From the IMG/VR virus record IMGVR_UViG_3300037242_000028: a stretch of 20,000 nt of DNA; one strand, 5' to 3'. The stretch comes from an uncultured virus (IMG/VR IMGVR_UViG_3300037242_000028) (lineage: Duplodnaviria; Heunggongvirae; Uroviricota; Caudoviricetes). The notes below the pieces were generated by a model. The model made no database searches. It was not told where the DNA came from and was given only the letters and a program-made list of their open reading frames with translations. Shown piece by piece: positions 10,628 through 20,000 of this stretch. Position 1 is the stretch's first letter. Each line of letters begins with the position of its first letter. Made by a program: the position numbers and the translations under genes.

Positions 10628-10855
10628 TTACACTGCCGAGGGCGGGTAGCCCGGAACTACTGCCGCGTTCACGGCCGTCTGATCGAGAGCGGCAAGCGCC
10701 GCCTTTGAAGCCTGTAGCTGCGCCTTCACCAGTGCAGCGTGTGAAGTCATTGACACCACATGCTGCTTCAACGCTATGATCTGTGCCGAAGTGACCTTTC
10801 CAAAAACCGGGCCCATCCGGTAAGCGGGCGATATGACGCGCGTCTCTTGAGTCAT
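10628..10855 (-). CDS. Hypothetical protein (75 aa), possible coiled coil
   Basis: Purine-rich upstream sequence (AAGGA..AGGG); co-oriented; fills the gap between neighbours. Confidence 0.6.
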   Translation of the reverse strand: MTQETRVISPAYRMGPVFGKVTSAQIIALKQHVVSMTSHAALVKAQLQASKAALAALDQTAVNAAVVPGYPPSAV

Positions 10856-10876
10856 GCGAGGGGGACCCTAGTTCCT

Positions 10877-10960
10877 TGTCCCGGTCGCCCGAACGGCCCC
10901 CTTGCGGAAGCCGTCCGGGTTCGCGAGACGAGCCGCGCCGCCGAAGCGGCGCAGCAAGCT
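10877..10960 (-). other. Twin RNA hairpins (cUUCGg loop 10932-10955; GCAA loop 10888-10919) downstream of the tail tube gene
   Basis: GCUGCGCCGC-UUCG-GCGGCGCGGC and CCCGGACGGCUUCC-GCAA-GGGGGCCGUUCGGG; the G-U pairs form only on the minus strand. Confidence 0.7.
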
Positions 10961-10964
10961 CAAA

Positions 10965-11546
10965 TTACAGTTCCGTTGCGGACGGGCTTGCAGGCAGGGT
11001 GGTCGTCGCCGTGCCGAAGCCGCCGGTGAGCCGGTCGTACAGCACGTCGCCTTTGAGTTCGATGGTGCCGTAGGCATTTCCGATGAACGCGATGGCCTTC
11101 GAGGGCTTGAGCGAGACCAGCGGGAATAGCGTCGTCCAGATTGGCCCCACGTCGTTCGCGCCAATGAATTGCACTGCCCCGTAAATAACCGGGTCGGCGA
11201 AGATGTCGATGGTGTCGGGACTCGGCGACGGGCCGCCAGTCGGCAGACCGAGCAGCGCGAGGCCCATGTTGCGCGCGGTGAATTCTTCGAGGACCATCGT
11301 CAGTTCGCCCGAGATTTCGGTGACCGCCGTGAAGTCCTTGACCTTGACGCCGGTCATGGACGAATAGTGGTCAAGCTGAGTGACCTTGGCGAAAAACTCG
11401 AATTGGGGACTGTTGCCGCATGGCGTGTAGGTGTTCTCGCCGAGCAACTGAATGCTGACCAGTCCGCGACCAATGTAGTAGTTGCCGATGTTCGGGCTGG
11501 AAAGCGAGCCTTCGATGTCGAAGGCCGGATTTTGCGTGTCACCCAT
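10965..11546 (-). CDS. Major tail (tube) protein (193 aa)
   Basis: SPN..NYYIGRG..GNSPQFEF..LDHYSS..GVKVKD motifs typical of proteobacterial siphovirus tail tube proteins; GGGAG RBS; synteny. Confidence 0.85.
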   Translation of the reverse strand: MGDTQNPAFDIEGSLSSPNIGNYYIGRGLVSIQLLGENTYTPCGNSPQFEFFAKVTQLDHYSSMTGVKVKDFTAVTEISGELTMVLEEFTARNMGLALLGLPTGGPSPSPDTIDIFADPVIYGAVQFIGANDVGPIWTTLFPLVSLKPSKAIAFIGNAYGTIELKGDVLYDRLTGGFGTATTTLPASPSATEL

Positions 11547-11572
11547 GGCACCGTCTCCCTAAAAGGATCAAA

Positions 11573-11595
11573 GCGCAAACCCCCATGGGCGGCGC
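11573..11595 (-). promoter_or_regulatory. AUGG-loop leader hairpin upstream of the tail tube gene
   Basis: GCGC-C-GCCC-AUGG-GGGU-UU-GCGC; loop about 37 nt upstream of the ATG. Confidence 0.55.
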
Positions 11596-11610
11596 GGAAT
11601 TAGATGGACC

Positions 11611-11619
11611 ATTAACCAT
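11611..11619 (-). promoter_or_regulatory. ATGGTTAAT motif copy 2
   Basis: Intergenic, 65 nt upstream of the tail tube start. Confidence 0.55.
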
Positions 11620-11633
11620 ATTCTGAGGGGGAT

Positions 11634-11661
11634 AGCAACCGGGGACTTGACCCCGGTTGCT
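11634..11661. other. 11-bp inverted repeat AGCAACCGGGG-ACTTGA-CCCCGGTTGCT
   Basis: Perfect stem after the tail terminator gene; no U-tract. Confidence 0.55.
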
Positions 11662-11692
11662 GCCCGGGTAAAACCCTGAATTGGAGGGGCTT

Positions 11693-12238
11693 TTAGCCCC
11701 CGCTCGGCAGGTTGATCCCGACGTACTCATTCTGAATGAGGGGGTACGTGAACGTGATCGAAATTCCCAACTGGCCCTTCATTGTTCGGTTACGGGCCAA
11801 GTCCGTCACGCAACCGTCGTACACGATGTTGCCGTTCGGCCCGACGATACCCTGCAACGCCTTATCCGGTAGCACCGCGCCCAAGATCGCGAGTCTCGCC
11901 GTGTTCAAGTCCTGCCCCACGTTTCGGTTCGTGATACCTCGAACTTCGAGGACCACGTAAATCTCTGGCGTCATCTTCATGATGCTCGGCGGGACGGCCC
12001 GCTCTATCAAGCCTCGCGCGGGTAACTGAGCACGCGGGTCCTTGATTTCGTCGGCGTCGAGAATGATAATTCCCGGCACCAACAGCGCGGGAAGTTCGTT
12101 CCGGTTTGAAACGATATTCCCCGGTACAATCGGCTTTGGTCCATCGGGGCCGCCTAGCAGCGGGATATTCAAGCCACCGAGCAACACATAGAGGCGGCTC
12201 AAAACAAGTTGCCGCCGGTCGTTTACGGAAAAAGCCAT
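11693..12238 (-). CDS. Tail terminator / completion protein (181 aa)
   Basis: Directly before the tail tube gene; GGAG RBS; architecture (DRRQLVLSRL..PGIIILDADE..ISITFTY) fits the terminator fold. Confidence 0.7.
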   Translation of the reverse strand: MAFSVNDRRQLVLSRLYVLLGGLNIPLLGGPDGPKPIVPGNIVSNRNELPALLVPGIIILDADEIKDPRAQLPARGLIERAVPPSIMKMTPEIYVVLEVRGITNRNVGQDLNTARLAILGAVLPDKALQGIVGPNGNIVYDGCVTDLARNRTMKGQLGISITFTYPLIQNEYVGINLPSGG

Positions 12239-12250
12239 GGGGGACTCTCC

Positions 12251-12664
12251 TTACAATTTCACGTTTGTTTGGTACAGCACGACGATGCCGCCGGGGGAGT
12301 AAAGCTTCAAAGGTTGAGTGAAGGACAAGACTTCGTTGACGACTGTGCCGCCGGGCTGGACGTAGGTAATCAGTTGCTCGTACTCCCAATCCGGGGCCAA
12401 GTTCGGGATGTCGCCGAGCCCGGCCGCGAACAGGATCGTCCGCTCGGTGGGGTTCGCGAGTTGAGTCTGAGCGTCCCGGGGCATGTAGTCGGAGACCACT
12501 ATAACGCACGGCCGTAGCACGAGCGTCTCGTTATTTCTGAGGTTCGCTGGCATCCCGTAGTCCGCGATTAGCTCGTCCGCGACTGCGAGCATTTCGGCAT
12601 AGAACAACTCGCCGACCCCGATGTTGCCCGCGCTCGATCCGCCGCCGCTGAATTTTGCGAGCAT
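12251..12664 (-). CDS. Head closure / head-tail joining protein (137 aa)
   Basis: FYAEMLAVADELIADYG N-terminus and SPGGIVVLYQTNV C-terminus typical of head-closure proteins following DnaT-like adaptors. Confidence 0.7.
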   Translation of the reverse strand: MLAKFSGGGSSAGNIGVGELFYAEMLAVADELIADYGMPANLRNNETLVLRPCVIVVSDYMPRDAQTQLANPTERTILFAAGLGDIPNLAPDWEYEQLITYVQPGGTVVNEVLSFTQPLKLYSPGGIVVLYQTNVKL

Positions 12665-12676
12665 GACTAACCCCCC

Positions 12677-13657
12677 TTACAGGATGATGCTTCGGCCGCC
12701 GCCAGCGCGCAGAATTCCGGCGCTACCCATGATCCGATCAACTTGCGGGAAGGTCGCGAAGAAGCCGAGGCCAATCGCGACGTTGTAGGCTTTGGTCACT
12801 TTGATAGGCCCGACTTCCTGAGAGTAGCTGGACAACACGCCGCCAGCCGTGACGATTGTTGGATCGTAATCCGGTTGCAGCACGACGCCGTTGAGCGCGC
12901 GAGCCGCAAGCTCGGCGCACGCGTACTTGATCGCCTGCGGAATTCCGAACACCGTGTCGCCGTTCATATCAATGACACCGACGCGCGGCCATTCGAGAGC
13001 TTGCTGTGTGGCGCTCGGCGTAAACCACGCCGAGTAGTTCGTGCCCGGGCCGCCGCCGAGGAAGCCCATCTCACCAAGCCACGGGTCAATGAAGCCGATG
13101 CTCGGGTCAAATGCGCCGTTACTCATGAATTGCAAAAGCTTGACGCCTTTGTACCGATACCGCTGGTCGATGTAGTCGGATGCTTGCACGATGGCGTTTT
13201 GGATCGCTTCGGACGGGCTGTCCGGGTAGGTGAAGTTGCCGCGCGCTCCGGTGTACTGCGCGAGGAAGTCGGGATAGATGTAGGCGTTCGCCATTGTTGC
13301 GGCGGCGATGTCGAGCGTCAGGCCCTCGTTCGCGCCAGTCGTCCATGTCACAGTGCCACTCTCGGGCCACGCTGAATTCAAGAGTGAGCCGGGGCCGGAG
13401 CCTTCGCCGTCGAGTCGGATCGGCCCGACTGCGGTCGTGATACCGAAGTCACCGTTCCCGCTGTTCTCGACATTTTGATTGACGGTGAACGGGAGCGAGA
13501 CGGTTTTGCCACTCCACGATTGAAGGCCCGCGTAAACGCCGGTGTCGCCGACTTCGACAGGGTTCTCGGGACCCGGCGAGCTAACAGGCGAAAGCTGCGC
13601 CACGGTGCCCGTGCGGTCCTGCACGGCGAAGATTAAAAGGGTCCCAAAGTCACTCAT
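12677..13657 (-). CDS. Head-tail adaptor, 'DnaT-like ssDNA-binding' family, with insertions (326 aa)
   Basis: Motifs ANAY, AIVQASDYID, YKG, QALEWPR, IPQAIKYACAELA and EVGPI; ATGA overlap with the upstream gene. Confidence 0.8.
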   Translation of the reverse strand: MSDFGTLLIFAVQDRTGTVAQLSPVSSPGPENPVEVGDTGVYAGLQSWSGKTVSLPFTVNQNVENSGNGDFGITTAVGPIRLDGEGSGPGSLLNSAWPESGTVTWTTGANEGLTLDIAAATMANAYIYPDFLAQYTGARGNFTYPDSPSEAIQNAIVQASDYIDQRYRYKGVKLLQFMSNGAFDPSIGFIDPWLGEMGFLGGGPGTNYSAWFTPSATQQALEWPRVGVIDMNGDTVFGIPQAIKYACAELAARALNGVVLQPDYDPTIVTAGGVLSSYSQEVGPIKVTKAYNVAIGLGFFATFPQVDRIMGSAGILRAGGGRSIIL

Positions 13658-13944
13658 GGCGTTGGCGCTCCCATATAGAGGAATTGCAAGAGAGACTGAT
13701 TATCAGCGCGGACCCAAGTCACGCCACCACTTTCCGCATCGGTGAACGACTGACCATAGGGAGCGTTGGGACCAGTCGTGCCACTGTGTGATGCGATGTA
13801 AGCCGCCCCGCCGCTCGACACGTACTGGCCCTCGCTCACGTCAAGGTTCTCTGACCATGGCGTGAGCGATTGCAGCACTTGGTTCGCGAGTCTACGCCGA
13901 CGCGCGTAATACATGGCCGCCTGTTGAGCACGGGTGATCGTCAT
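13654..13944 (-). CDS. Small virion-associated protein (96 aa) with CBM5/12-like module
   Basis: Start re-assigned to ATG 13944 (MTITRAQQ...); PW..GQYVSSGGAAYIA..GTTG..P..GGVTW motif. Confidence 0.65.
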   Translation of the reverse strand: MTITRAQQAAMYYARRRRLANQVLQSLTPWSENLDVSEGQYVSSGGAAYIASHSGTTGPNAPYGQSFTDAESGGVTWVRADNQSLLQFLYMGAPTP

Positions 13945-13949
13945 TTTAT

Positions 13950-14093
13950 TTACAGGACCCCGAGAAGAAACAAGATCAGGAGAATGATGAGGATTGTTCC
14001 GAGTCCGATGCCCCCTCCGCCGATGCCGCCGATGTAGTGGCCGCCGCCGCCGAACAGGAGAATGAGAACGATAATCAAAAGGATCAAGCCCAT
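13950..14093 (-). CDS. Small two-TM membrane protein, DUF3309-like (47 aa)
   Basis: MGLILLIIVLILLFGGGGHYIGGIGGGGIGLGTILIILLILFLLGVL; strong GAGGAGG RBS before ATG 14093. Confidence 0.8.
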   Translation of the reverse strand: MGLILLIIVLILLFGGGGHYIGGIGGGGIGLGTILIILLILFLLGVL

Positions 14094-14116
14094 GGTCGCC
14101 TCCTCTGTTGTAGAAC

Positions 14117-14166
14117 AAAAAAGCCCCCGCCCCACGCGGCCATTAGGCCGCTGCGGGGCGAGGGCT
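14117..14166 (-). terminator. Intrinsic terminator
   Basis: AGCCCUCGCCCCGCAGCGGCC-UAAU-GGCCGCGUGGGGCGGGGGCU followed by a U-run. Confidence 0.8.
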
Positions 14167-14213
14167 GTATATGATTGGGTTGACAGTCCCGCGTATTCTG
14201 TCAACGGATGTGT

Positions 14214-14969
14214 TTACGCTTTGGTTCCCGGAGTCATCGCCCGAGCTTCCCGCGCTGCGGTTTGCGCCGCCTCCGCCGCACTACCCGGGACAACCATTCC
14301 GAGCTTCGCCGCTTCTTTCAGGCTGAAAGTGCCCTTGGAGCGGCCGGGTCCGTAACCTTTATTCGCCGAAAAACCACCGGGACGCCGAATTTGATCCAAA
14401 TGAGACGCCGCCGCCGCCCCCTGTTGAACCCGAGCTTGGCGAATTTCCGCTTCCGCCCGTAAGTGCGCCTTGATGTTCTCCGCCGCCGTCATTGGCGGAA
14501 ACCATTTGTGCAGGTCACGCTGAGCGGCGGTTAACTCGTGAGCCGCATCGTTCTGCATCACAATGCCGTCGCGCTGCATCGCTTTACCCGCTTCGCGCTT
14601 CTGTTCGGCGTCCTTGACGCGCTTCGTGAGATGCGCCCGAAGCTGAGCATCCGAAACTACTACTTCCTCAGTCCCCGCGATTGCAGCAGCCTTGGCGGCT
14701 TTGTCGTCGAGAACAGGCTTCGTCACTGAGACCTTGGCTTCGACCGGAGCGATTGGCTCGATTGGAGTCGCCGCCTTCGGCGCTTTCGCTTCTACAGCCG
14801 CAGCCCGGTCAAAGCCCGGACGCGCGGCCTGAATGTCACTGCGCTTGATTGTCTGGTCGTTGGCGAGCTTCTGGACTGTGCCGGTATTCGGGAGTCCATC
14901 GGTATTCCAATGACTGTCGTCGGACGGGTCGAGTTGCGCGAGCGCAGCTAGAACTTTGGGGGTTTCCAT
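14214..14969 (-). CDS. Conserved phage head-region protein (251 aa)
   Basis: Start re-assigned to METPK (GAGG RBS). N-terminal ALAQLDP..D.HW..DGLP..R.DI.AA.PGF.R motif is recalled from proteins downstream of capsid genes; the middle looks coiled-coil. Confidence 0.75.
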   Translation of the reverse strand: METPKVLAALAQLDPSDDSHWNTDGLPNTGTVQKLANDQTIKRSDIQAARPGFDRAAAVEAKAPKAATPIEPIAPVEAKVSVTKPVLDDKAAKAAAIAGTEEVVVSDAQLRAHLTKRVKDAEQKREAGKAMQRDGIVMQNDAAHELTAAQRDLHKWFPPMTAAENIKAHLRAEAEIRQARVQQGAAAASHLDQIRRPGGFSANKGYGPGRSKGTFSLKEAAKLGMVVPGSAAEAAQTAAREARAMTPGTKA

Positions 14970-14995
14970 TTGATAGCCTCTTGCTTGGGGACACG

Positions 14996-15017
14996 CCCCG
15001 ATGCCCATGCAGCGGGG
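14996..15017 (-). promoter_or_regulatory. AUGG-loop leader hairpin upstream of the 251-aa gene
   Basis: CCCCG-C-UGC-AUGG-GCA-U-CGGGG; loop about 36 nt upstream of the ATG. Confidence 0.55.
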
Positions 15018-15033
15018 AAAGCTCTTAAAGGTT

Positions 15034-15111
15034 GGCGGCGGAGAGGGTTTTCCACCCCCGTCCGCCGCCGATCAGTATCCGCCGGAAGTCCCCCCTCTGG
15101 ACGGACACCGA
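15034..15111 (-). other. Twin RNA hairpins downstream of the 70-aa gene
   Basis: UCGGUGUCCGUC..GGCGGAUACUGA (15072-15111) and GGCGGCGGA-C-GGGGGU-GGAAA-ACCCUC-UCCGCCGCC (15034-15069). Confidence 0.6.
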
Positions 15112-15115
15112 AGGC

Positions 15116-15328
15116 TTAAAGCTGACCGAGGCTTGTCGCCGCCGCGATTTGCTCAGCGGTGTAGCTGTCGAGCAAGCCGAAGATCGCGGCCGAAGTCGTG
15201 CCGAGGCGCGTCGCCTGTAAGGACAGGAACGAAAGCTCTTGCTTGCTATGATTGAGTCTCGTGAAGTTCGCATAGCGTTGGTGACGCTTGTGCAAACGAG
15301 GCGAAGCGAGGGAGTCAAAATCAGCCAT
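15116..15328 (-). CDS. Hypothetical protein (70 aa), basic N-terminus
   Basis: AAGGA RBS; co-oriented; bounded by hairpins on both sides. Confidence 0.6.
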   Translation of the reverse strand: MADFDSLASPRLHKRHQRYANFTRLNHSKQELSFLSLQATRLGTTSAAIFGLLDSYTAEQIAAATSLGQL

Positions 15329-15342
15329 TGGCGTGCATCCTT

Positions 15343-15401
15343 GGTTTGAAGAAGCGGCCGGAAGCCAAGTCTTAGTTGGCTTCCGGCGTATCTCTTAAAC
15401 C
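15343..15401 (-). other. Long imperfect hairpin immediately after the capsid stop
   Basis: 12-bp core GCCGGAAGCCAA-CUAAGAC-UUGGCUUCCGGC (15357-15387), extended by GGUUU-AAGA / UCUU-C-AAACC. Confidence 0.65.
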
Positions 15402-15407
15402 CGCTGG

Positions 15408-16589
15408 TTATGGACCAGTGTTCGCGGTTGCCGCCGTGGTTCCAAAGACCGCCAAGTTCTGACCGTCGCTCGGGTCCGCCGTCCATGCGTAGCCGCTGGT
15501 GGACTCGCGCGTAATCAGGCGGGAGAGCTTGATCTGCTTGCGTTCCGGGAACACGCGGACAAAGGAGCCGCTGGCCGAAAGCTGACCGTTCGTCGGGCCG
15601 CCTTCATAGTGAGGCGAAGAACCGACCCACGCGTGGCCGACCGGGTGGATGACCCACTCGACGCGGTTGAACAGGGTGTCCGAGCCCGCGCCGTTGCCGC
15701 GCGACGGGTAACGGAACACTTCGGTCGGGACGACCGGGGTGCCGACGCCGAGTCGGAACGAGGCCGGTCCAACGAGCCAAGTGTGGTAGAGGCCGGAGCC
15801 GCCGCCAGTGTTGGCGTTGTTGGACGTGTCGCCCGCCGGGTTGGGCATTCCGTCGTCCACGATGACACGGCGACCCAAAAACACCGGGATGTTGATGTGT
15901 CCTTCCGCGTCCGGGATGAAGTCGATCAGGTTATTCTTCTGAGCCTTCGAGTAGACGATGGAGTGCATGAACACCGCCGTCACATCTTCGGCCGCGTCGC
16001 CGAGCAACGTGCAGGCGTCAATGAACGCCTCCGCGTTGAAGTCGGTGACGCCCGAGCTATAGCCCGAGGCAGAAATGTCATGAGTCAGGTCGTCCTGATT
16101 GCCGTACTGAGCGGCAAGGCCCAAGCCGCCCGGGGTAGCACCCGCGTTGGCCGAGGCGTTGGTGAAGAACACGCCGTTGGCTACGGCGACGAAAGCACGC
16201 TGTAGACGACGGACCCAATAGTCGGAGACGCGCGATGCGATGGACTGCATCGGGTCGGCACCGGCCAAGGCCGTCGCAAGGCGCATCGTGCTCCACGAAC
16301 TATTACGGGAAAGTCGAACCGCGACTTCGGCTGACGTTCCAGTGATGTTCGGGGTCGAGTCGTAATTGGGGTCGTCGGAGCCGACGTTTTCCGCCGGGTC
16401 ACCGATGTCCTGCCAAGACGGGACCGTGAAAGTCAAGCCGCCGCCAGCGAGGAGGTTGTCCAAGAAGTCGTCGCGAGCCGCGATGCCCGACTGGACGATG
16501 GCGGTTTTCTCCATCGTCAACTGTTGGGTGTACGGCGTAAAGATCGCGGGGACGATAACGTCTGAGATTGTGGTGGATACGTTAGCCAT
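15408..16589 (-). CDS. Major capsid protein, SPP1 gp13-like (393 aa)
   Basis: Start re-assigned to ATG 16589 (GGAGG RBS). The N-terminus TTISDVIVPAIFTPY..QSGIAA..GGG..P.W.D closely recalls SPP1 gp13-type capsid proteins. Confidence 0.92.
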   Translation of the reverse strand: MANVSTTISDVIVPAIFTPYTQQLTMEKTAIVQSGIAARDDFLDNLLAGGGLTFTVPSWQDIGDPAENVGSDDPNYDSTPNITGTSAEVAVRLSRNSSWSTMRLATALAGADPMQSIASRVSDYWVRRLQRAFVAVANGVFFTNASANAGATPGGLGLAAQYGNQDDLTHDISASGYSSGVTDFNAEAFIDACTLLGDAAEDVTAVFMHSIVYSKAQKNNLIDFIPDAEGHINIPVFLGRRVIVDDGMPNPAGDTSNNANTGGGSGLYHTWLVGPASFRLGVGTPVVPTEVFRYPSRGNGAGSDTLFNRVEWVIHPVGHAWVGSSPHYEGGPTNGQLSASGSFVRVFPERKQIKLSRLITRESTSGYAWTADPSDGQNLAVFGTTAATANTGP

Positions 16590-16626
16590 GGCACTGCCTC
16601 CAAGGGGTGAAACTGGATAGCTCCGG

Positions 16627-16688
16627 CCTCCCCATGGAGGTATCGGGTATTTTGGTCCGGGCGCATCGAGCACTGCCATGAGGCTCAA
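16627..16688 (-). promoter_or_regulatory. Two AUGG-loop leader hairpins upstream of the capsid gene
   Basis: CCUCC-AUGG-GGAGG (16627-16640) and UUGAGC-CU-cAUGGc-AG-U-GCUCGA (16666-16688). Confidence 0.55.
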
Positions 16689-16732
16689 GAAACGATGGGA
16701 CCTGATTTCGATGCTGGTATGATTAACGCGTT

Positions 16733-16748
16733 TTGCTTCGCGAAGCAA
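16733..16748. promoter_or_regulatory. Perfect 16-bp palindrome TTGCTTCGCGAAGCAA (operator candidate)
   Basis: Adjacent to the GTTAAT variant motif (16722-16727) in the AT-rich spacer upstream of the capsid gene. Confidence 0.45.
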
Positions 16749-16870
16749 CCCGGTAAACGCGAAAAAGAATTTTGGGGGATGAAATTCGAGGAAATGCTTT
16801 GTTATTCGGCGTTTGCGCTATATTCGCTGCACAGCAAATTTGAAATGCAAAGCCCTAACGCTTTGTAATC

Positions 16871-16945
16871 ATGGGGCGGGGACCGGCTTGAGTGCCATGG
16901 TTTCGACACGACACGCCGCCTCAACCGCGAACGTCCCCGCCCCAT
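16871..16945 (-). other. 75-nt long imperfect RNA hairpin
   Basis: 13-bp closing stem AUGGGGCGGGGAC/GUCCCCGCCCCAU, then CGG-UUGAG/CUCAA-CCG and GUGUCGUG/CAUGGCAC with G-U pairs. Confidence 0.7.
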
Positions 16946-16946
16946 C

Positions 16947-16979
16947 AAAACAACAATGCCGCCCCGGGGGCGGCATTGT
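16947..16979 (-). terminator. Probable intrinsic terminator of the scaffold gene
   Basis: ACAAUGCCGCCC-(CCG)-GGGCGGCAUUGU followed by UGUUUU, 31 nt after the stop. Confidence 0.7.
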
Positions 16980-17010
16980 CAAGTTGCCTTAAGTCAGGTT
17001 ACGGACTGGT

Positions 17011-17874
17011 TTATGCGACCTTCCGAGTTGGCCGCACCGCACCGATCTTCGAGTTGGCGCGAGCCGCCAACGCCGCGCCTTTTTCCTCGCCGTTATCGCG
17101 GATGTACTTGCCTTGAGCGGTGAGGTTCCAAGCTTCGGCGCTCCAAGGATTGTCCTTGTTGCTGACGCCGCCGCCCTTGCCGCCCTGCGCGCCGCCACCT
17201 TGGCTAAGCGGCCACCAATGCGGGCGTTTTTCCTTCATGTCCTTAGCCCATTCCTTCGGGTCGAGACCCGGAGTCATGCCGTTGTCGGACTTGGTGACGA
17301 GTTTGCCATCGACGAACTCAAACATGCGTTCACCGACCAGCACCGCGTCGTCGATAGCCGTGGGGAGAACCTGCGCCGCGATGACCGCATCGCGGATCGA
17401 AAGCCGAACATGCTCCTGACGGATATTCTCGTTGAGCTTGCCGATTTCGGCTTCCTTCTCGACGACGGACTTCTTCGCCACTTCGAGTTGTTTGGCTAAC
17501 GAGTCCTTCTCACGGCCGACCGGGCCGACTGCGCGGTTCACCGCCGCGCTGATTTGCGCCTCCACCTTGCCCTCGTCAAGCTTGCCTTCCGCCGTCAGCG
17601 TGTCGAGACGCGCCTTGGCTTCGGCCAGTTCTTCATTCAGGGCCGGGAGAGTTGTGGGATCGACATCGCCGAACAATTGCAGCTTATCACGAACTGCCTT
17701 GTGATCGGTGCGCTCTTTCAAAAGCGCCACATTCATGCGGTCGATGTCGGCTTGAGTCTTGACCCCTTCGATATTGGTCAACTCAAACTTCCCGTTTTTC
17801 TCGGTGTAAAGTTCACCGTAGCCTTCGGGGACATCTTCCTGTTTTTCGTAAACCGTCTTGAGCTTTACAGCCAT
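17011..17874 (-). CDS. Capsid scaffolding protein (287 aa)
   Basis: LYTEKNGKFEL N-terminal motif, long coiled coil, PHWW..SQGGGAQG..NPW..WNLTAQ C-terminus; GAGGAG RBS; precedes the capsid gene. Confidence 0.85.
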   Translation of the reverse strand: MAVKLKTVYEKQEDVPEGYGELYTEKNGKFELTNIEGVKTQADIDRMNVALLKERTDHKAVRDKLQLFGDVDPTTLPALNEELAEAKARLDTLTAEGKLDEGKVEAQISAAVNRAVGPVGREKDSLAKQLEVAKKSVVEKEAEIGKLNENIRQEHVRLSIRDAVIAAQVLPTAIDDAVLVGERMFEFVDGKLVTKSDNGMTPGLDPKEWAKDMKEKRPHWWPLSQGGGAQGGKGGGVSNKDNPWSAEAWNLTAQGKYIRDNGEEKGAALAARANSKIGAVRPTRKVA

Positions 17875-17894
17875 TGTCGTTACTCCTCACTGTT

Positions 17895-17931
17895 CCCGTT
17901 CGACCATTCGCCCGGGCGGACCCCATGTTCC
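17895..17931 (-). promoter_or_regulatory. Two AUGG-loop leader hairpins upstream of the scaffold gene
   Basis: GGA-A-C-AUGG-G-G-UCC (17918-17931) and CCCG-GG-CGA-AUGG-UCG-AA-CGGG (17895-17916). Confidence 0.5.
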
Positions 17932-17935
17932 CTTT

Positions 17936-18277
17936 TCAGTTCAAACAAACGCGCAATGCCGAAACCTGTGCGGGGGACAAACCGTACTGTTTAGCTGCGG
18001 CGAGAACTTGAGCCTTCGTGTATTCTGCTGCGGCCGACCGGACTTGCTTGCAAGCCATCGCGTCGCCGAGTTTGCCACCCTTGAGCACCTTGCGGTACAC
18101 GACGGACTTTTTCGTAACCGGCGGTTTCAACACTGGCGCGTCCAAAACGGGCGCAACTGTTGAAACGGTCGGCGGGACCCCGGCGCAGGGAGACGCCTGC
18201 ACACCGAAAAAGATCACCGCCCCGAGGGCGGCGACTGCGAGTGCTCCACCTATAAGATTGATTGAGGGGACTTGCAT
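17936..18277 (-). CDS. Small secreted or membrane-anchored protein (113 aa)
   Basis: Start re-assigned to MQVPS (GGAG RBS); hydrophobic N-terminal segment, Pro-rich linker and C-terminal C..VR...A..YG.S..Q...R.CL domain. Confidence 0.7.
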   Translation of the reverse strand: MQVPSINLIGGALAVAALGAVIFFGVQASPCAGVPPTVSTVAPVLDAPVLKPPVTKKSVVYRKVLKGGKLGDAMACKQVRSAAAEYTKAQVLAAAKQYGLSPAQVSALRVCLN

Positions 18278-18305
18278 TGCCGCTCCGGGGAGGTTAAGCC
18301 CGGGC

Positions 18306-18314
18306 ATTAACCAT
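18306..18314 (-). promoter_or_regulatory. ATGGTTAAT motif copy 3
   Basis: Intergenic; preceded on the minus strand by TTGACA (18333-18328); overlaps near-palindrome GGTTAAGCCCGGGCATTAACC (18292-18312). Confidence 0.55.
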
Positions 18315-18329
18315 GTTTAGGGGCTGCTG

Positions 18330-20000
18330 TCAAGTCTTTGGTGGCGGCTTCCGCGCCCAAGTATGGGCGGGAGTGGTGAGGTTTCTATCGGCGATTGAGC
18401 GCGGGGGGACCATGCTGCGGACGCCTCTATCGAAGCTCTTTCCACGGAACAATTCCAAAGTATCGGCATAGACCGCCTTCGGGGCCGATCCACCCCCGCG
18501 CCCCATCTGCTCTTGCTCCGGCGGAGTCGGCGGCGGCGCGTTGGGGTTGAATACGATCAGGTTCGCATCGCTCCCGTTCATTGAGAACGATCCGGTCTCG
18601 CACGATAGAATGTGCGTCATAAGTAAGCCTGCGGGCGCGCCGGTCATTTCGTAGGACCCGGCCGCAATCCCGAACTCCACGACTTCCTCGAACTCGGCGG
18701 TTGCGCCGGTCATCGAGTAGGACCCGGCCTGCGCATCGAGCACTCGGTTGTAGAGAAGCGCCGCGTCGCTGCCGGTCATCGAGTAGGACCCGACCGCTTC
18801 GTCGAGGTACGCGCCGCTCAAAACTTGAAGGAGCGCATCGCTGCCGGTGATCGAGTAGGACCCGACCGCTTCGTCGAGCACGCGATTGTAAAGGAGGGCC
18901 GCGTCGTCGCCCGTAATCGAGTAGGACCCGACCGCGAAGTCGAGTAGGTGCGCGGTGAGCAACGCGGCCGCATCGCCCGTGATCGTGTACGCGCCCGGAG
19001 TCAGCCCAAGCATATCGGCGAAGGCCAACGACGATCCGGTGATCGCGTAGGTGCCGACCGCGAAATCCAACACTCGATTGTAGAGAAGCGCGGCGGCGTC
19101 GCCCGTGATCGCATAGGTGCCCTCCGCGAACCCGAGCGTATCGGCGAAGGCCAACGGCGAGCCGGTGATTGCATAAGTGCCGACCGCGAAATCCAACACG
19201 CGATTGTAGAGAAGCGCCGCCGCATCGCCCATGATCGCGTAGGTGCCGACCGCTTCGTCTAGCACACGCGCAATGAACAGCGCCGCCGCGTCGCCCGTGA
19301 TCGTGTACGCGCCCGGCGCGAACCCGAGCGTATAGCCGAAGGCCAGCGGGGAACCTGTGATTGCGTAGGTGCCGACTGCGAAATCCAACACACGCTTGCG
19401 GAGAAGCGCCGCCGCGTCACCCGTGATCGTGTACGCGCCCGGCGCGAGCCCGAGCATATCGGCGAAGGCCAACGGCGATCCGGTGATCGCGTAGGTGCCG
19501 ACCGCGAAGTCGAGAACGTGATGATAAAGAAGCGCAGCGGCGTCACCCGTGATCGCGTAGGTGCCGACCGCCATGTCGAGGACGCCTTCGAGCAATGCCG
19601 CGCTGCCAGTGATCGTGTAGATGCCGACTGCGAAGTCCAACACGCGGTTGCGGAGAAGCGCCGCCGCGTCACCCGTGATCGTGTACGCGCCCGGAGTCAG
19701 CCCGAGCATATCGGCGAAGGCCAACGGCGATCCGGTGATCGCGTAAGTGCCGACCGCGAAGTCAAGGACGTGGTGATAGAGAAGGGCGGCGGCGTCACCC
19801 GTGATCGCGTAGGTGCCGACCGCCATGTCGAGAACGCCTTCGAGCAATGCCGCGCTGCCGGTGATCGCGTAGGTGCCGACTGCGAAGTCCAACACGCGGT
19901 TGCGGAGAAGCGCCGCCGCGTCACCCGTGATCGTGTACGCGCCCGGAGTCAGCCCGAGCATATCGGCGAAGGCCAACGGCGATCCGGTGATCGCGTAAGT
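18330..20000 (-). CDS. Tandem-repeat protein, 5'-truncated by the window edge; probable virion filament/decoration protein
   Basis: The frame is open to position 20000 (the track's start is an internal TTG). At least 22 full units of 20-24 aa, consensus LDFAVGTYAITGDAAALLYNRV. Confidence 0.85.
   Translation of the reverse strand, partial: TYAITGSPLAFADMLGLTPGAYTITGDAAALLRNRVLDFAVGTYAITGSAALLEGVLDMAVGTYAITGDAAALLYHHVLDFAVGTYAITGSPLAFADMLGLTPGAYTITGDAAALLRNRVLDFAVGIYTITGSAALLEGVLDMAVGTYAITGDAAALLYHHVLDFAVGTYAITGSPLAFADMLGLAPGAYTITGDAAALLRKRVLDFAVGTYAITGSPLAFGYTLGFAPGAYTITGDAAALFIARVLDEAVGTYAIMGDAAALLYNRVLDFAVGTYAITGSPLAFADTLGFAEGTYAITGDAAALLYNRVLDFAVGTYAITGSSLAFADMLGLTPGAYTITGDAAALLTAHLLDFAVGSYSITGDDAALLYNRVLDEAVGSYSITGSDALLQVLSGAYLDEAVGSYSMTGSDAALLYNRVLDAQAGSYSMTGATAEFEEVVEFGIAAGSYEMTGAPAGLLMTHILSCETGSFSMNGSDANLIVFNPNAPPPTPPEQEQMGRGGGSAPKAVYADTLELFRGKSFDRGVRSMVPPRSIADRNLTTPAHTWARKPPPKT
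18540..20000. repeat. Coding tandem repeat array of mostly 60/66-bp units with a 252-bp higher-order period
   Basis: cccgagcatatcggcgaaggccaacggcgatccggtgatcgcgta recurs at 19449, 19701 and 19953 (spacing 252). Confidence 0.9.

Follow-up and report, generated by a model that had tools for sequence, protein, structure and literature searches.

The window analyzed here, a stretch of 20,000 nucleotides (nt) from an uncultured tailed virus of peat soil (IMG/VR record IMGVR_UViG_3300037242_000028), is the reverse strand of a 26.6-kb (26632 nt) record rated 25% complete. Its subject is a short RNA hairpin with a recurrent AUGG loop, six copies of which had been listed in a preliminary description of the window, in the leaders of the genes for the scaffold, the capsid, a 251-residue protein (p251) and the tail tube. 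Our main finding, which rests on comparative sequence analysis, is that these hairpins represent a real, widely conserved and uncatalogued element, apparently cis-regulatory, on head-gene messages. All genes discussed lie on the minus strand of the window, which is the transcribed strand. From upstream to downstream, the features concerned are the following (MFE, minimum free energy fold; SD, Shine-Dalgarno; aa, amino acids; bp, base pairs):

17918..17931, minus strand: distal AUGG hairpin of the scaffold leader, with an A.G mismatch and only 3 outer pairs in the MFE; degraded here
17895..17916, minus strand: proximal AUGG hairpin of the scaffold leader, -11.7 kcal/mol, present in the MFE
17011..17874, minus strand: head scaffolding protein gene, 287 aa (phrog_206, E 1.3e-38)
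16951..16981, minus strand: intrinsic terminator after the scaffold gene (terminator scan)
16720..16748, minus strand: TTGCTT-17 nt-TAATCA, a promoter-like block before the capsid leader, conserved in relatives (by eye)
16695..16696, minus strand: 5' end of the abundant capsid RNA (contig ends, 4/4 metatranscriptome runs)
16666..16688, minus strand: distal hairpin of the capsid leader, a CAUGGC hexaloop on a 2+4 bp stem (from sequence), 8-10 nt from the RNA 5' end
16627..16640, minus strand: proximal hairpin of the capsid leader, CCUCC-AUGG-GGAGG, -11.8 kcal/mol
16597..16609, minus strand: C-tract and true SD site CACCCCUUGGAGG, paired in the alternative fold (MFE) with 16631-16640
15408..16589, minus strand: major head protein gene, 393 aa (phrog_247, E 9e-96), with the highest RNA depth of the region
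14996..15017, minus strand: hairpin of the p251 leader, CCCCG-C-UGC-AUGG-GCA-U-CGGGG, -12.9 kcal/mol, present in the MFE
14214..14969, minus strand: p251 gene, 251 aa (phrog_6213, phrog_17843 and phrog_10966 on residues 3-78, families of unknown function only)
11573..11595, minus strand: hairpin of the tail-tube leader, GCGC-C-GCCC-AUGG-GGGU-UU-GCGC, -12.5 kcal/mol, not in the MFE of the 58-nt leader
10965..11546, minus strand: major tail protein gene, 193 aa (phrog_807, E 6e-20)

Hairpins of the window

All six hairpin sites were found again on the transcribed strand. Each position of the contig was then forced as a tetraloop, and the best local hairpin was computed with 12-nt flanks. Over the whole contig, the transcribed strand holds exactly four AUGG-tetraloop hairpins at -10 kcal/mol or below (17895-17916, 16627-16640, 14996-15017 and 11573-11595) and the opposite strand holds none; all four are intergenic, in a contig of which intergenic DNA makes up 2415 of 26632 nt. 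Dinucleotide shuffles of the whole contig contain 0.39 AUGG hairpins on average and never reach the observed 4 (0/200), and shuffles of the intergenic segments alone contain 0.032 (0/500 reach 4), so that the enrichment to be expected from the preliminary description is borne out. Moreover, no tetraloop other than AUGG recurs among the independent intergenic hairpins of the contig.

Several details of the first account had to be amended. The four strong copies are exact AUGG tetraloops, but the copy at 16666-16688 is really a CAUGGC hexaloop and that at 17918-17931 carries the A.G mismatch; both of these weak copies correspond to hairpins that relatives have in intact form. Counted from the loop A, the distances to the start codons of the scaffold, capsid, p251 and tail-tube genes are 33, 46, 39 and 40 nt, and not 30, 43, 36 and 37 nt. 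The loop AUGs do differ in frame, that of the tail tube being out of frame, but the loop AUG of p251 is in frame with its gene (open reading frame (ORF) 14214-15008). The stems do vary and covary, but the proximal capsid stem is not arbitrary: CCUCC/GGAGG is an anti-SD/SD-like pair, and in the hairpin at 16627..16640 the loop is preceded by an anti-SD arm and followed by an SD-mimic arm. In the scaffold leader, the proximal loop lies 19 nt from the distal one, and the base of the proximal hairpin 6 nt before the SD GAGGAG (17883-17888). A terminator scan of 11400-18100 called 8 sites, none of which is any of the six hairpins; these do not qualify as intrinsic terminators or attenuators.

Conservation, covariation and loop class among relatives

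A scan of IMG/VR with the capsid protein yielded 80 loci, from 100% to 53% identical. Within the 110 nt before the capsid starts, most of them have an ATGG with complementary arms about 45 nt upstream, and many have a second copy about 50 nt further upstream. For a systematic count, gene starts were anchored by tblastn, identical leaders were collapsed, and an ATGN-tetraloop hairpin at -6.5 kcal/mol or below was sought within 130 nt upstream, a region that for the control genes, with their short gaps, is mostly coding sequence of the upstream gene. Unique leaders with such a hairpin were distributed as follows:

capsid: 50/63
scaffold: 31/39
p251: 15/51
p70: 0/44
p181: 0/31
p170: 0/31
p176: 0/18
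p137: 0/12
adaptor: 1/36
tail tube: 1/34
tape measure: 1/6

The tail-tube hairpin, which had been put on a par with the others, is therefore a lineage-specific addition and not a conserved member of the motif. In the two genes that carry the motif most often, its position is constrained, with loop-to-start distances of 31-34 nt in 18/31 scaffold leaders and of 42-53 nt in 38/50 capsid leaders. Across the 80 loci, ATGG is the commonest tetraloop of intergenic hairpins (45/874 at -7 kcal/mol or below), ahead of the terminator loops TTCG and GCAA, despite a crude ORF caller that swallowed many leaders.

The motif, present in hundreds of relatives, extends to cultured phages. Capsid relatives of 43-53% identity are found among the Queuovirinae (Pseudomonas NP1, PaMx25 and JG054; Escherichia Seurat; Salmonella SE1), in Stenotrophomonas Siara and in Roseobacter RDJL3, and the hairpins are present in NP1, RDJL3, Siara, Seurat and SE1. 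SPP1, AXL3 and Jersey-like phages have capsids that are 30-35% identical; the capsid relatives SPP1, AXL3 and skrot are without the motif. The p251 protein is conserved over its N-terminal ~65 residues only, these five motif-bearing phages included (tblastn). Further AUGG- or AUGU-loop hairpins occur in the NP1 record (L087) at 707, 13019 and 50013, in the gaps before the holin gene gp02, the structural gene gp17 and gp61, and a CACC-AUGA-GGUG lies directly on the SD of NP1 gp17 and of many relatives' p251 genes. As for the host of the window phage, a scan of genome contigs found only relatives of at most 53% identity, in metagenome-assembled genome (MAG) contigs of many phyla.

Compensatory changes are evident in the scaffold leaders, where covariation around a fixed loop was recovered: from 24 unique leaders in an ordinary MAFFT alignment, RNAalifold predicted both hairpins, with compensatory (both-side) changes in 9/9 pairs. 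The spacing of the two loops is 19 nt in 7/8 leaders with two called hairpins, and 20 nt in the eighth. In a loop-anchored alignment of 104 unique hairpins, each of the six inner pairs shows four to six pair types, G.U pairs occurring in stems, and 83% of the cells are paired versus 47% after shuffling and 40-54% in slid registers; only the pair-type diversity of this set is informative, because the set was selected by folding energy and loop, which is circular. In 20 capsid leaders, the one helix that RNAalifold proposed joins two CCAUGG palindromes; it was treated as an artefact of a gappy MAFFT alignment, being devoid of compensatory change.

The loop is mostly AUGG, with AUGA, AUGU and AUGC common in scaffold leaders, and its fourth base is G, A, U or C across the 104 related hairpins. 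CATGGC and CATGGT hexaloops recur in relatives, and two MAG contigs have CACGG loops (read by eye). Seurat and SE1 have an ACGG loop at all copies, while NP1, RDJL3 and Siara have AUGN loops. Indeed, the loop class is uniform within a genome: 64 unique leader sets are of AUG type only, 2 of ACG type only, and 0 are mixed. Such a concerted switch leaves no start-codon function for the loop triplet, and is what a single trans-acting reader predicts. Some relatives have GUGAU, GUGAC or GCGAU pentaloops at AUGG positions of their capsid or scaffold leaders (L064, L065, L082, L080, L096 and L026), and L026 has a CCC-GUGAU-GGG overlapping an AUGG. Loops of this GNGAY type stand alone in L082, and six sets, L064, L080, L096 and L026 included, have them together with AUG-type loops. 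The common denominator of all these loops is a start R-Y-G.

The element is not catalogued. Scanned against Rfam with E up to 10, the window yielded 6 hits, all attributable to chance, and neither the hairpins nor TwoAYGGAY were among them; five cultured relatives gave 0 hits at gathering score, and searches of literature listings found no description of the motif. What had been presented as a candidate undescribed control system in front of virion assembly genes is accordingly absent from Rfam and conserved far beyond the window phage. A covariance model of our own (R1), built from 24 scaffold leaders and run over 34 sources, recovered the window itself (59 bits) and four non-significant matches (E 0.12-0.84), two of which fall on scaffold leaders (L071 and L086), a third on the capsid leader of SE1 and the last at another place. 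The model's information content is too low for distant members to be found.

Transcription and alternative folds of the capsid leader

Transcription was followed in assembled contigs of four peat metatranscriptome runs over 10800-18400. For 14900-17950, six peat metatranscriptome runs hold 36-59% of the words, and many DNA runs 99-100%. Capsid RNA contigs end at 16695 or 16696 in all four runs, with adapter directly after in two (X15 and X18); the capsid 5' untranslated region (UTR) is therefore about 106 nt long and contains both hairpins, its 5' end lying 8-10 nt before the distal one. The capsid hairpins are thus transcribed as 5'-UTR RNA. RNA depth is zero at 16896-17149 in 4/4 runs, which fits the terminator called at 16951-16981, and summed depth is highest over the capsid (108-195 in X16 and X17), about 36 over the tail tube, 9-16 at the start of the p251 gene and 0-20 over the scaffold. 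Contigs of the tail tube end in two runs at 11592, inside the outer stem and 2 nt before the inner one, a weak hint of a 5' end, and a TCTAAT lies 7 nt upstream of this position (by eye). RNA contigs span the p251 hairpin and reach up to 15081 and 15094; no consistent ends were seen at the p251 and scaffold leaders in the four runs. A promoter scan for the E. coli consensus did not call the TTGCTT-17-TAATCA block of the window (16748-16720). In Seurat, SE1 and Siara, TTGACA-17-TAAGTT, TAGTTT or TACCTT stands directly before the first capsid hairpin (by eye).

The preliminary description had missed that the proximal capsid hairpin is one of two mutually exclusive folds, the other of which sequesters the SD. 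Of each unique capsid leader, the stretch folded began 12 nt upstream of the proximal loop and ended with the sixth coding base. The proximal AUGN hairpin is in the MFE of only one of the 43 leaders and absent from 42, whereas at least 4 bases of the SD region are paired in 42/43, at least 3 of them with the 5' arm of the hairpin in 36/43. In the window, CCUCCA (16640-16635) pairs with UGGAGG (16602-16597), and the next GGG with CCC of the conserved C-tract. The mean energy cost of imposing the hairpin is 5.8 kcal/mol, versus 1.1 when the downstream part is dinucleotide-shuffled, and 30/43 leaders exceed 95% of their own 40 shuffles in this cost. Most leaders have a 5' arm that resembles an anti-SD (ACCUCC in 14, CUCUCC in 12, CCUCAC in 4), and the arm is matched to its own leader: the arm-SD duplex has -8.6 kcal/mol with the own SD and -7.7 with the SD of other leaders, and only 1/300 permutations attains the value of the own pairs. 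In the NP1-like group, the competing helix is instead formed by GCCAUGG and CCAUGGC of the start site. A small conserved hairpin at 16611-16626 (minus strand; GGA-GCUA-UCC, GGAGCAAUCC in relatives), between the proximal capsid hairpin and the C-tract, is the tip of the alternative fold. The other leaders behave differently: the scaffold hairpin is in the MFE of 18/19 leaders and the p251 hairpin in that of 12/15, with no excess competition, and mutually exclusive folds of which one buries the SD were found for capsid leaders only (36/43).

Candidate readers and interpretation

The reading towards which we lean, if only slightly, is that of a cis-regulatory RNA read through its loops by one candidate trans-acting factor, with a translation switch on the capsid message. 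The element consists of a short stem and a loop that starts with A-Y-G, mostly AUGG, in the 5' leaders of head-morphogenesis messages of a large siphophage clade, placed as a tandem pair abutting the ribosome site of the scaffold, as a pair in the capsid leader and as a single copy before p251. One sequence-specific reader would dock on the loops and set translation, perhaps also stability. On the capsid message, the anti-SD 5' arm would either pair with its own SD-like 3' arm, forming the hairpin and leaving the ribosome site free, or pair with the true SD, with the loop UGGGG on the downstream CCCC tract, covering the ribosome site; because the latter fold is the lower in energy, capsid translation would be switched on by a reader that locks the hairpin in place. 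Fixed single-stranded bases on a covarying stem at the edge of a ribosome site were found here as in translational operators of the MS2 or ThrRS style. The proposal of a recurrent RNA motif is, to this extent, supported by the fixed loop, the covarying stems and the gene-specific placement; a binding protein would fit the single loop class per genome.

Several points weigh against this reading. The whole-leader folding z-scores of the window are unremarkable (-2.0, 0.1, 0.6 and -0.5). The leaders counted (43 to 63) are related by descent, so the counts overstate the number of independent events. As scaffold and p251 have no competing fold, the switch model covers the capsid copy only, and as the SD is still partly paired in 40/43 hairpin-enforced folds, its 'ON' state is not clearly SD-free. 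Even without a reader, the conservation of the loop bases could be explained in part by their pairing in the alternative fold, and a few relatives have GNGAY loops in place of AYGN loops or beside them. The RNA evidence consists of assembled contigs and not of raw reads, and the capsid 5' end may be a processed one, because it lies 24 nt after the promoter-like hexamer. Finally, across the distant loci and cultured phages, no candidate reader was found conserved alongside the motif apart from the head proteins.

The candidates named in the preliminary description were the scaffold protein and two small proteins, which are listed here with a further neighbor:

15116-15328, minus strand: gene of the 70-aa protein (p70), directly 3' of the capsid gene
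13654-13944, minus strand: gene of the Arg-rich 96-aa protein (p96), which starts with an ARRRR run
12677-13657, minus strand: Ad1 head-tail adaptor gene (PHROG profile)

An RNA-binding role would suit the conserved basic N-terminal arm of p70, which is present in 53/80 related loci, and the ARRRR run with which p96 opens. Yet p96 is present in only 13/80 loci, p70 has neither a Pfam hit nor a fold match in the PDB, and both, together with a 123-aa protein, went undetected in 21 distant loci (L062-L082, of which L064, L065, L079 and L082 are without an AUG-type loop) and in the motif-bearing NP1, Seurat, SE1, Siara and RDJL3, which makes either of them a most improbable reader. The arm of p70 is nearly invariant (R11, H16 and R18), and the protein also has a QATRL helix. 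Its assignment as a ribbon-helix-helix protein was rejected, the AlphaFold model (pLDDT 77.7) being helical with a disordered basic arm and giving no PDB match at E <= 0.001. The scaffold alone remains of the candidates proposed, and that it reads the loops, autoregulating its own and the capsid message as the scaffold of P22 does its own, seems to us quite unlikely. A scaffold homologue does occur in 5/5 motif-bearing cultured phages and was undetected by tblastn in the 3/3 motif-less capsid relatives (SPP1, AXL3 and skrot), and the scaffold leader has the most regular architecture, with its tandem pair, fixed 19-nt spacing and position beside the SD. This correlation is confounded with relatedness, however, as motif-bearing phages have a capsid identity of at least 43% and the others of at most 35%; L064 and L065 have scaffolds that are 37-39% identical and yet GUGAY loops; and profile searches detected no RNA-binding domain in the scaffold.

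Explanations without any reader, or above the level of RNA, were weighed in the same way. The hairpins could be structural elements, that is, 5'-proximal stabilisers or processing boundaries of late messages, the capsid copy being a purely cis folding switch in which the hairpin forms first during transcription and then refolds to the SD-covered state, and in which the loop is kept for its alternative pairing (UGGGG with CCCC, or the CCAUGG palindrome with the CC-AUG-G start site). RNA 5' ends, as marked by contig ends, do adjoin hairpins, 8-10 nt before the distal capsid hairpin (16695/16696, four runs) and 2 nt before the inner tail-tube stem (11592, two runs), and a few nt separate the promoter -10 from the beginning of the first capsid hairpin in NP1, SE1 and Seurat (by eye). 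Besides the pairing of loop bases in the alternative fold, YC precedes the capsid AUG in 48/63 leaders versus 7/39 for the scaffold, and the start codon pairs with an upstream CAUG in 14/63 capsid MFE folds; loop-start codon pairing was nonetheless discarded as a general mechanism, given that it occurs in these 14 folds only and that the scaffold start contexts, which are not complementary to the loop, are unfit for it. We judge a structural element to be rather unlikely for the reason that scaffold and p251 hairpins keep the loop without a competing fold, and that in Seurat and SE1 all copies have changed together to ACGG, a loop without complementarity to the start sites of these phages. Stabiliser hairpins, moreover, need no particular loop; those of the ompA type, whose sequence is unimportant, lie about 0-4 nt from the RNA 5' end, a distance that the capsid 5' end (8-10 nt) exceeds and that of the tail tube (2 nt from the inner stem, by contig ends of two runs) does not.

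A role of the nascent hairpins on RNA polymerase after late promoters, by put-like antitermination or pausing, would account for the pair at the start of the capsid transcript, for the terminators that flank the units and for the RNA that partly reads through the capsid terminator. It is very unlikely in view of the scaffold pair, whose distance to the SD is 6 nt and for which no promoter is recognisable in the 61-nt gap, of the p251 copy, which is downstream and not upstream of a terminator-like hairpin, and of the way in which hairpin position tracks the start codon. That the element acts as DNA (an operator, a cruciform or a methylation site), or provides alternative start codons, is scarcely credible. 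The repeats are indeed inverted in the DNA, CCATGG is a palindrome and the p251 loop AUG is in frame; but the orientation is strictly that of the transcribed strand (4 hairpins versus 0 on the opposite one), the stems contain G.U pairs, and the arms vary around a fixed spacer, the reverse of a protein-DNA operator. The loop AUG was rejected as an alternative start or start-codon mimic, since Seurat and SE1 have ACGG and loop AUGs are without an SD and differ in frame.

In phage Mu, Com activates translation of mom by opening a buried ribosome site, and the capsid leader resembles mom in having a hairpin beside an SD-burying helix; it differs in that no Com-like zinc-finger protein was found in the window, and in that the motif is on several genes, not one, of which scaffold and p251 have no inhibitory helix. 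RNA-phage coat-protein operators of the MS2 and PP7 type are short hairpins with fixed loop bases on a free stem that control translation of a neighboring gene. The hairpins described here share the fixed loop bases, the freely varying stem and the position next to a translated gene, but include neither the start codon nor a conserved bulged purine, belong to double-stranded DNA phages and are common to several genes. By analogy, Com at mom may be the best mechanistic model for the capsid switch, and coat-protein and ThrRS operators for the fixed-loop, ribosome-edge architecture. The scaffolding protein of P22 autoregulates its own synthesis post-transcriptionally; the scaffold family here is a different one. 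CsrA/RsmA sites have a GGA core in a loop (A-N-GGA), usually overlapping the SD, and TwoAYGGAY of Rfam consists of two hairpins with AYGGAY loops. Both resemble our element in an A-Y-G-G in hairpin loops that are often paired, but the parallel with CsrA/RsmA drawn at first does not hold: the GGA core is absent, as in each of the six window copies GG is followed by G, C or U, and the loops of relatives include AUGA, AUGU and AUGC. The TwoAYGGAY covariance model has no match in the window (E up to 10). The boxB sites of lambda and P22, bound by N, are likewise fixed-loop hairpins with free stems, and the few relatives with GUGAY or GCGAU loops at the same positions recall them. AUGG and ACGG are not GNRA-like, however, the window having AUGG tetraloops or a CAUGGC hexaloop and no GNRA-like pentaloop, and the hairpins here stand beside head-gene ribosome sites, those of boxB in early nut sites. 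Nor is any N-like protein known for the present element. In Pseudomonas phage YuA, a siphophage, ONT-cappable-seq identified a discrete, conserved short RNA derived from the 5' UTR upstream of the major head gene gp56 (Putzeys et al. 2024, PMC10914365), and thus a capsid leader that is a discrete RNA species; YuA belongs to another phage family and has another loop type.

A few neighboring features stand apart from the element. A very strong terminator follows the p251 gene at 14110-14160 (minus strand; core -22.7 kcal/mol, UAAU loop, U tract), in which an AUGG occurs by chance at the loop-stem junction and is not a member of the motif. Between the p251 and p96 genes, 13950-14093 (minus strand) encodes a Gly/Leu/Ile-rich hydrophobic peptide of 47 aa with its own strong SD, weakly similar to DUF3309 (E 0.017) and present in only 4/80 related loci. 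Upstream of the scaffold module, an ORF of 548 aa (18330-19976, minus strand) occupies the expected position of the portal; it has no match to a portal profile, and only weak ones to MBG_2 and Cthe_2159. Five single-base differences between the window and the stored contig G000 (19621, 19887, 19896, 19899 and 19998) lie in the region of this ORF, far from the hairpins.

Only for a few model systems is it understood how a tailed phage apportions its scaffold, capsid and tail-tube protein, whose amounts are large and very unequal, and to our knowledge no RNA target has yet been defined for scaffold autoregulation. The element provides a concrete, widely conserved RNA signal on scaffold and capsid messages that probably sets head-protein output. 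To the preliminary description, our analysis adds transcript evidence, a range of cultured phages with ACGG variants, the concordance of loops within each genome, the exclusion of p70 and p96, and the competing fold of the capsid leader. As the motif is found in cultured phages of E. coli (Seurat), Salmonella (SE1), Pseudomonas (NP1), Stenotrophomonas (Siara) and Roseobacter (RDJL3), it is open to experiment; its reader, once identified, could prove to be a new RNA-binding protein or a host machine put to a new use, and the capsid-leader switch could serve as a compact part for translational control. We suggest tentatively, as a possible but doubtful extension, that the AYGG, ACGG and GNGAY hairpins of head genes form one superfamily of R-Y-G-loop operators with a single candidate reader, be it phage-encoded or a conserved host machine, across many tailed-phage lineages. 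If so, they would constitute a pan-phage regulon, acting post-transcriptionally, through which scaffold and capsid synthesis are timed and kept in balance, the latter by way of the anti-SD/SD-mimic switch.

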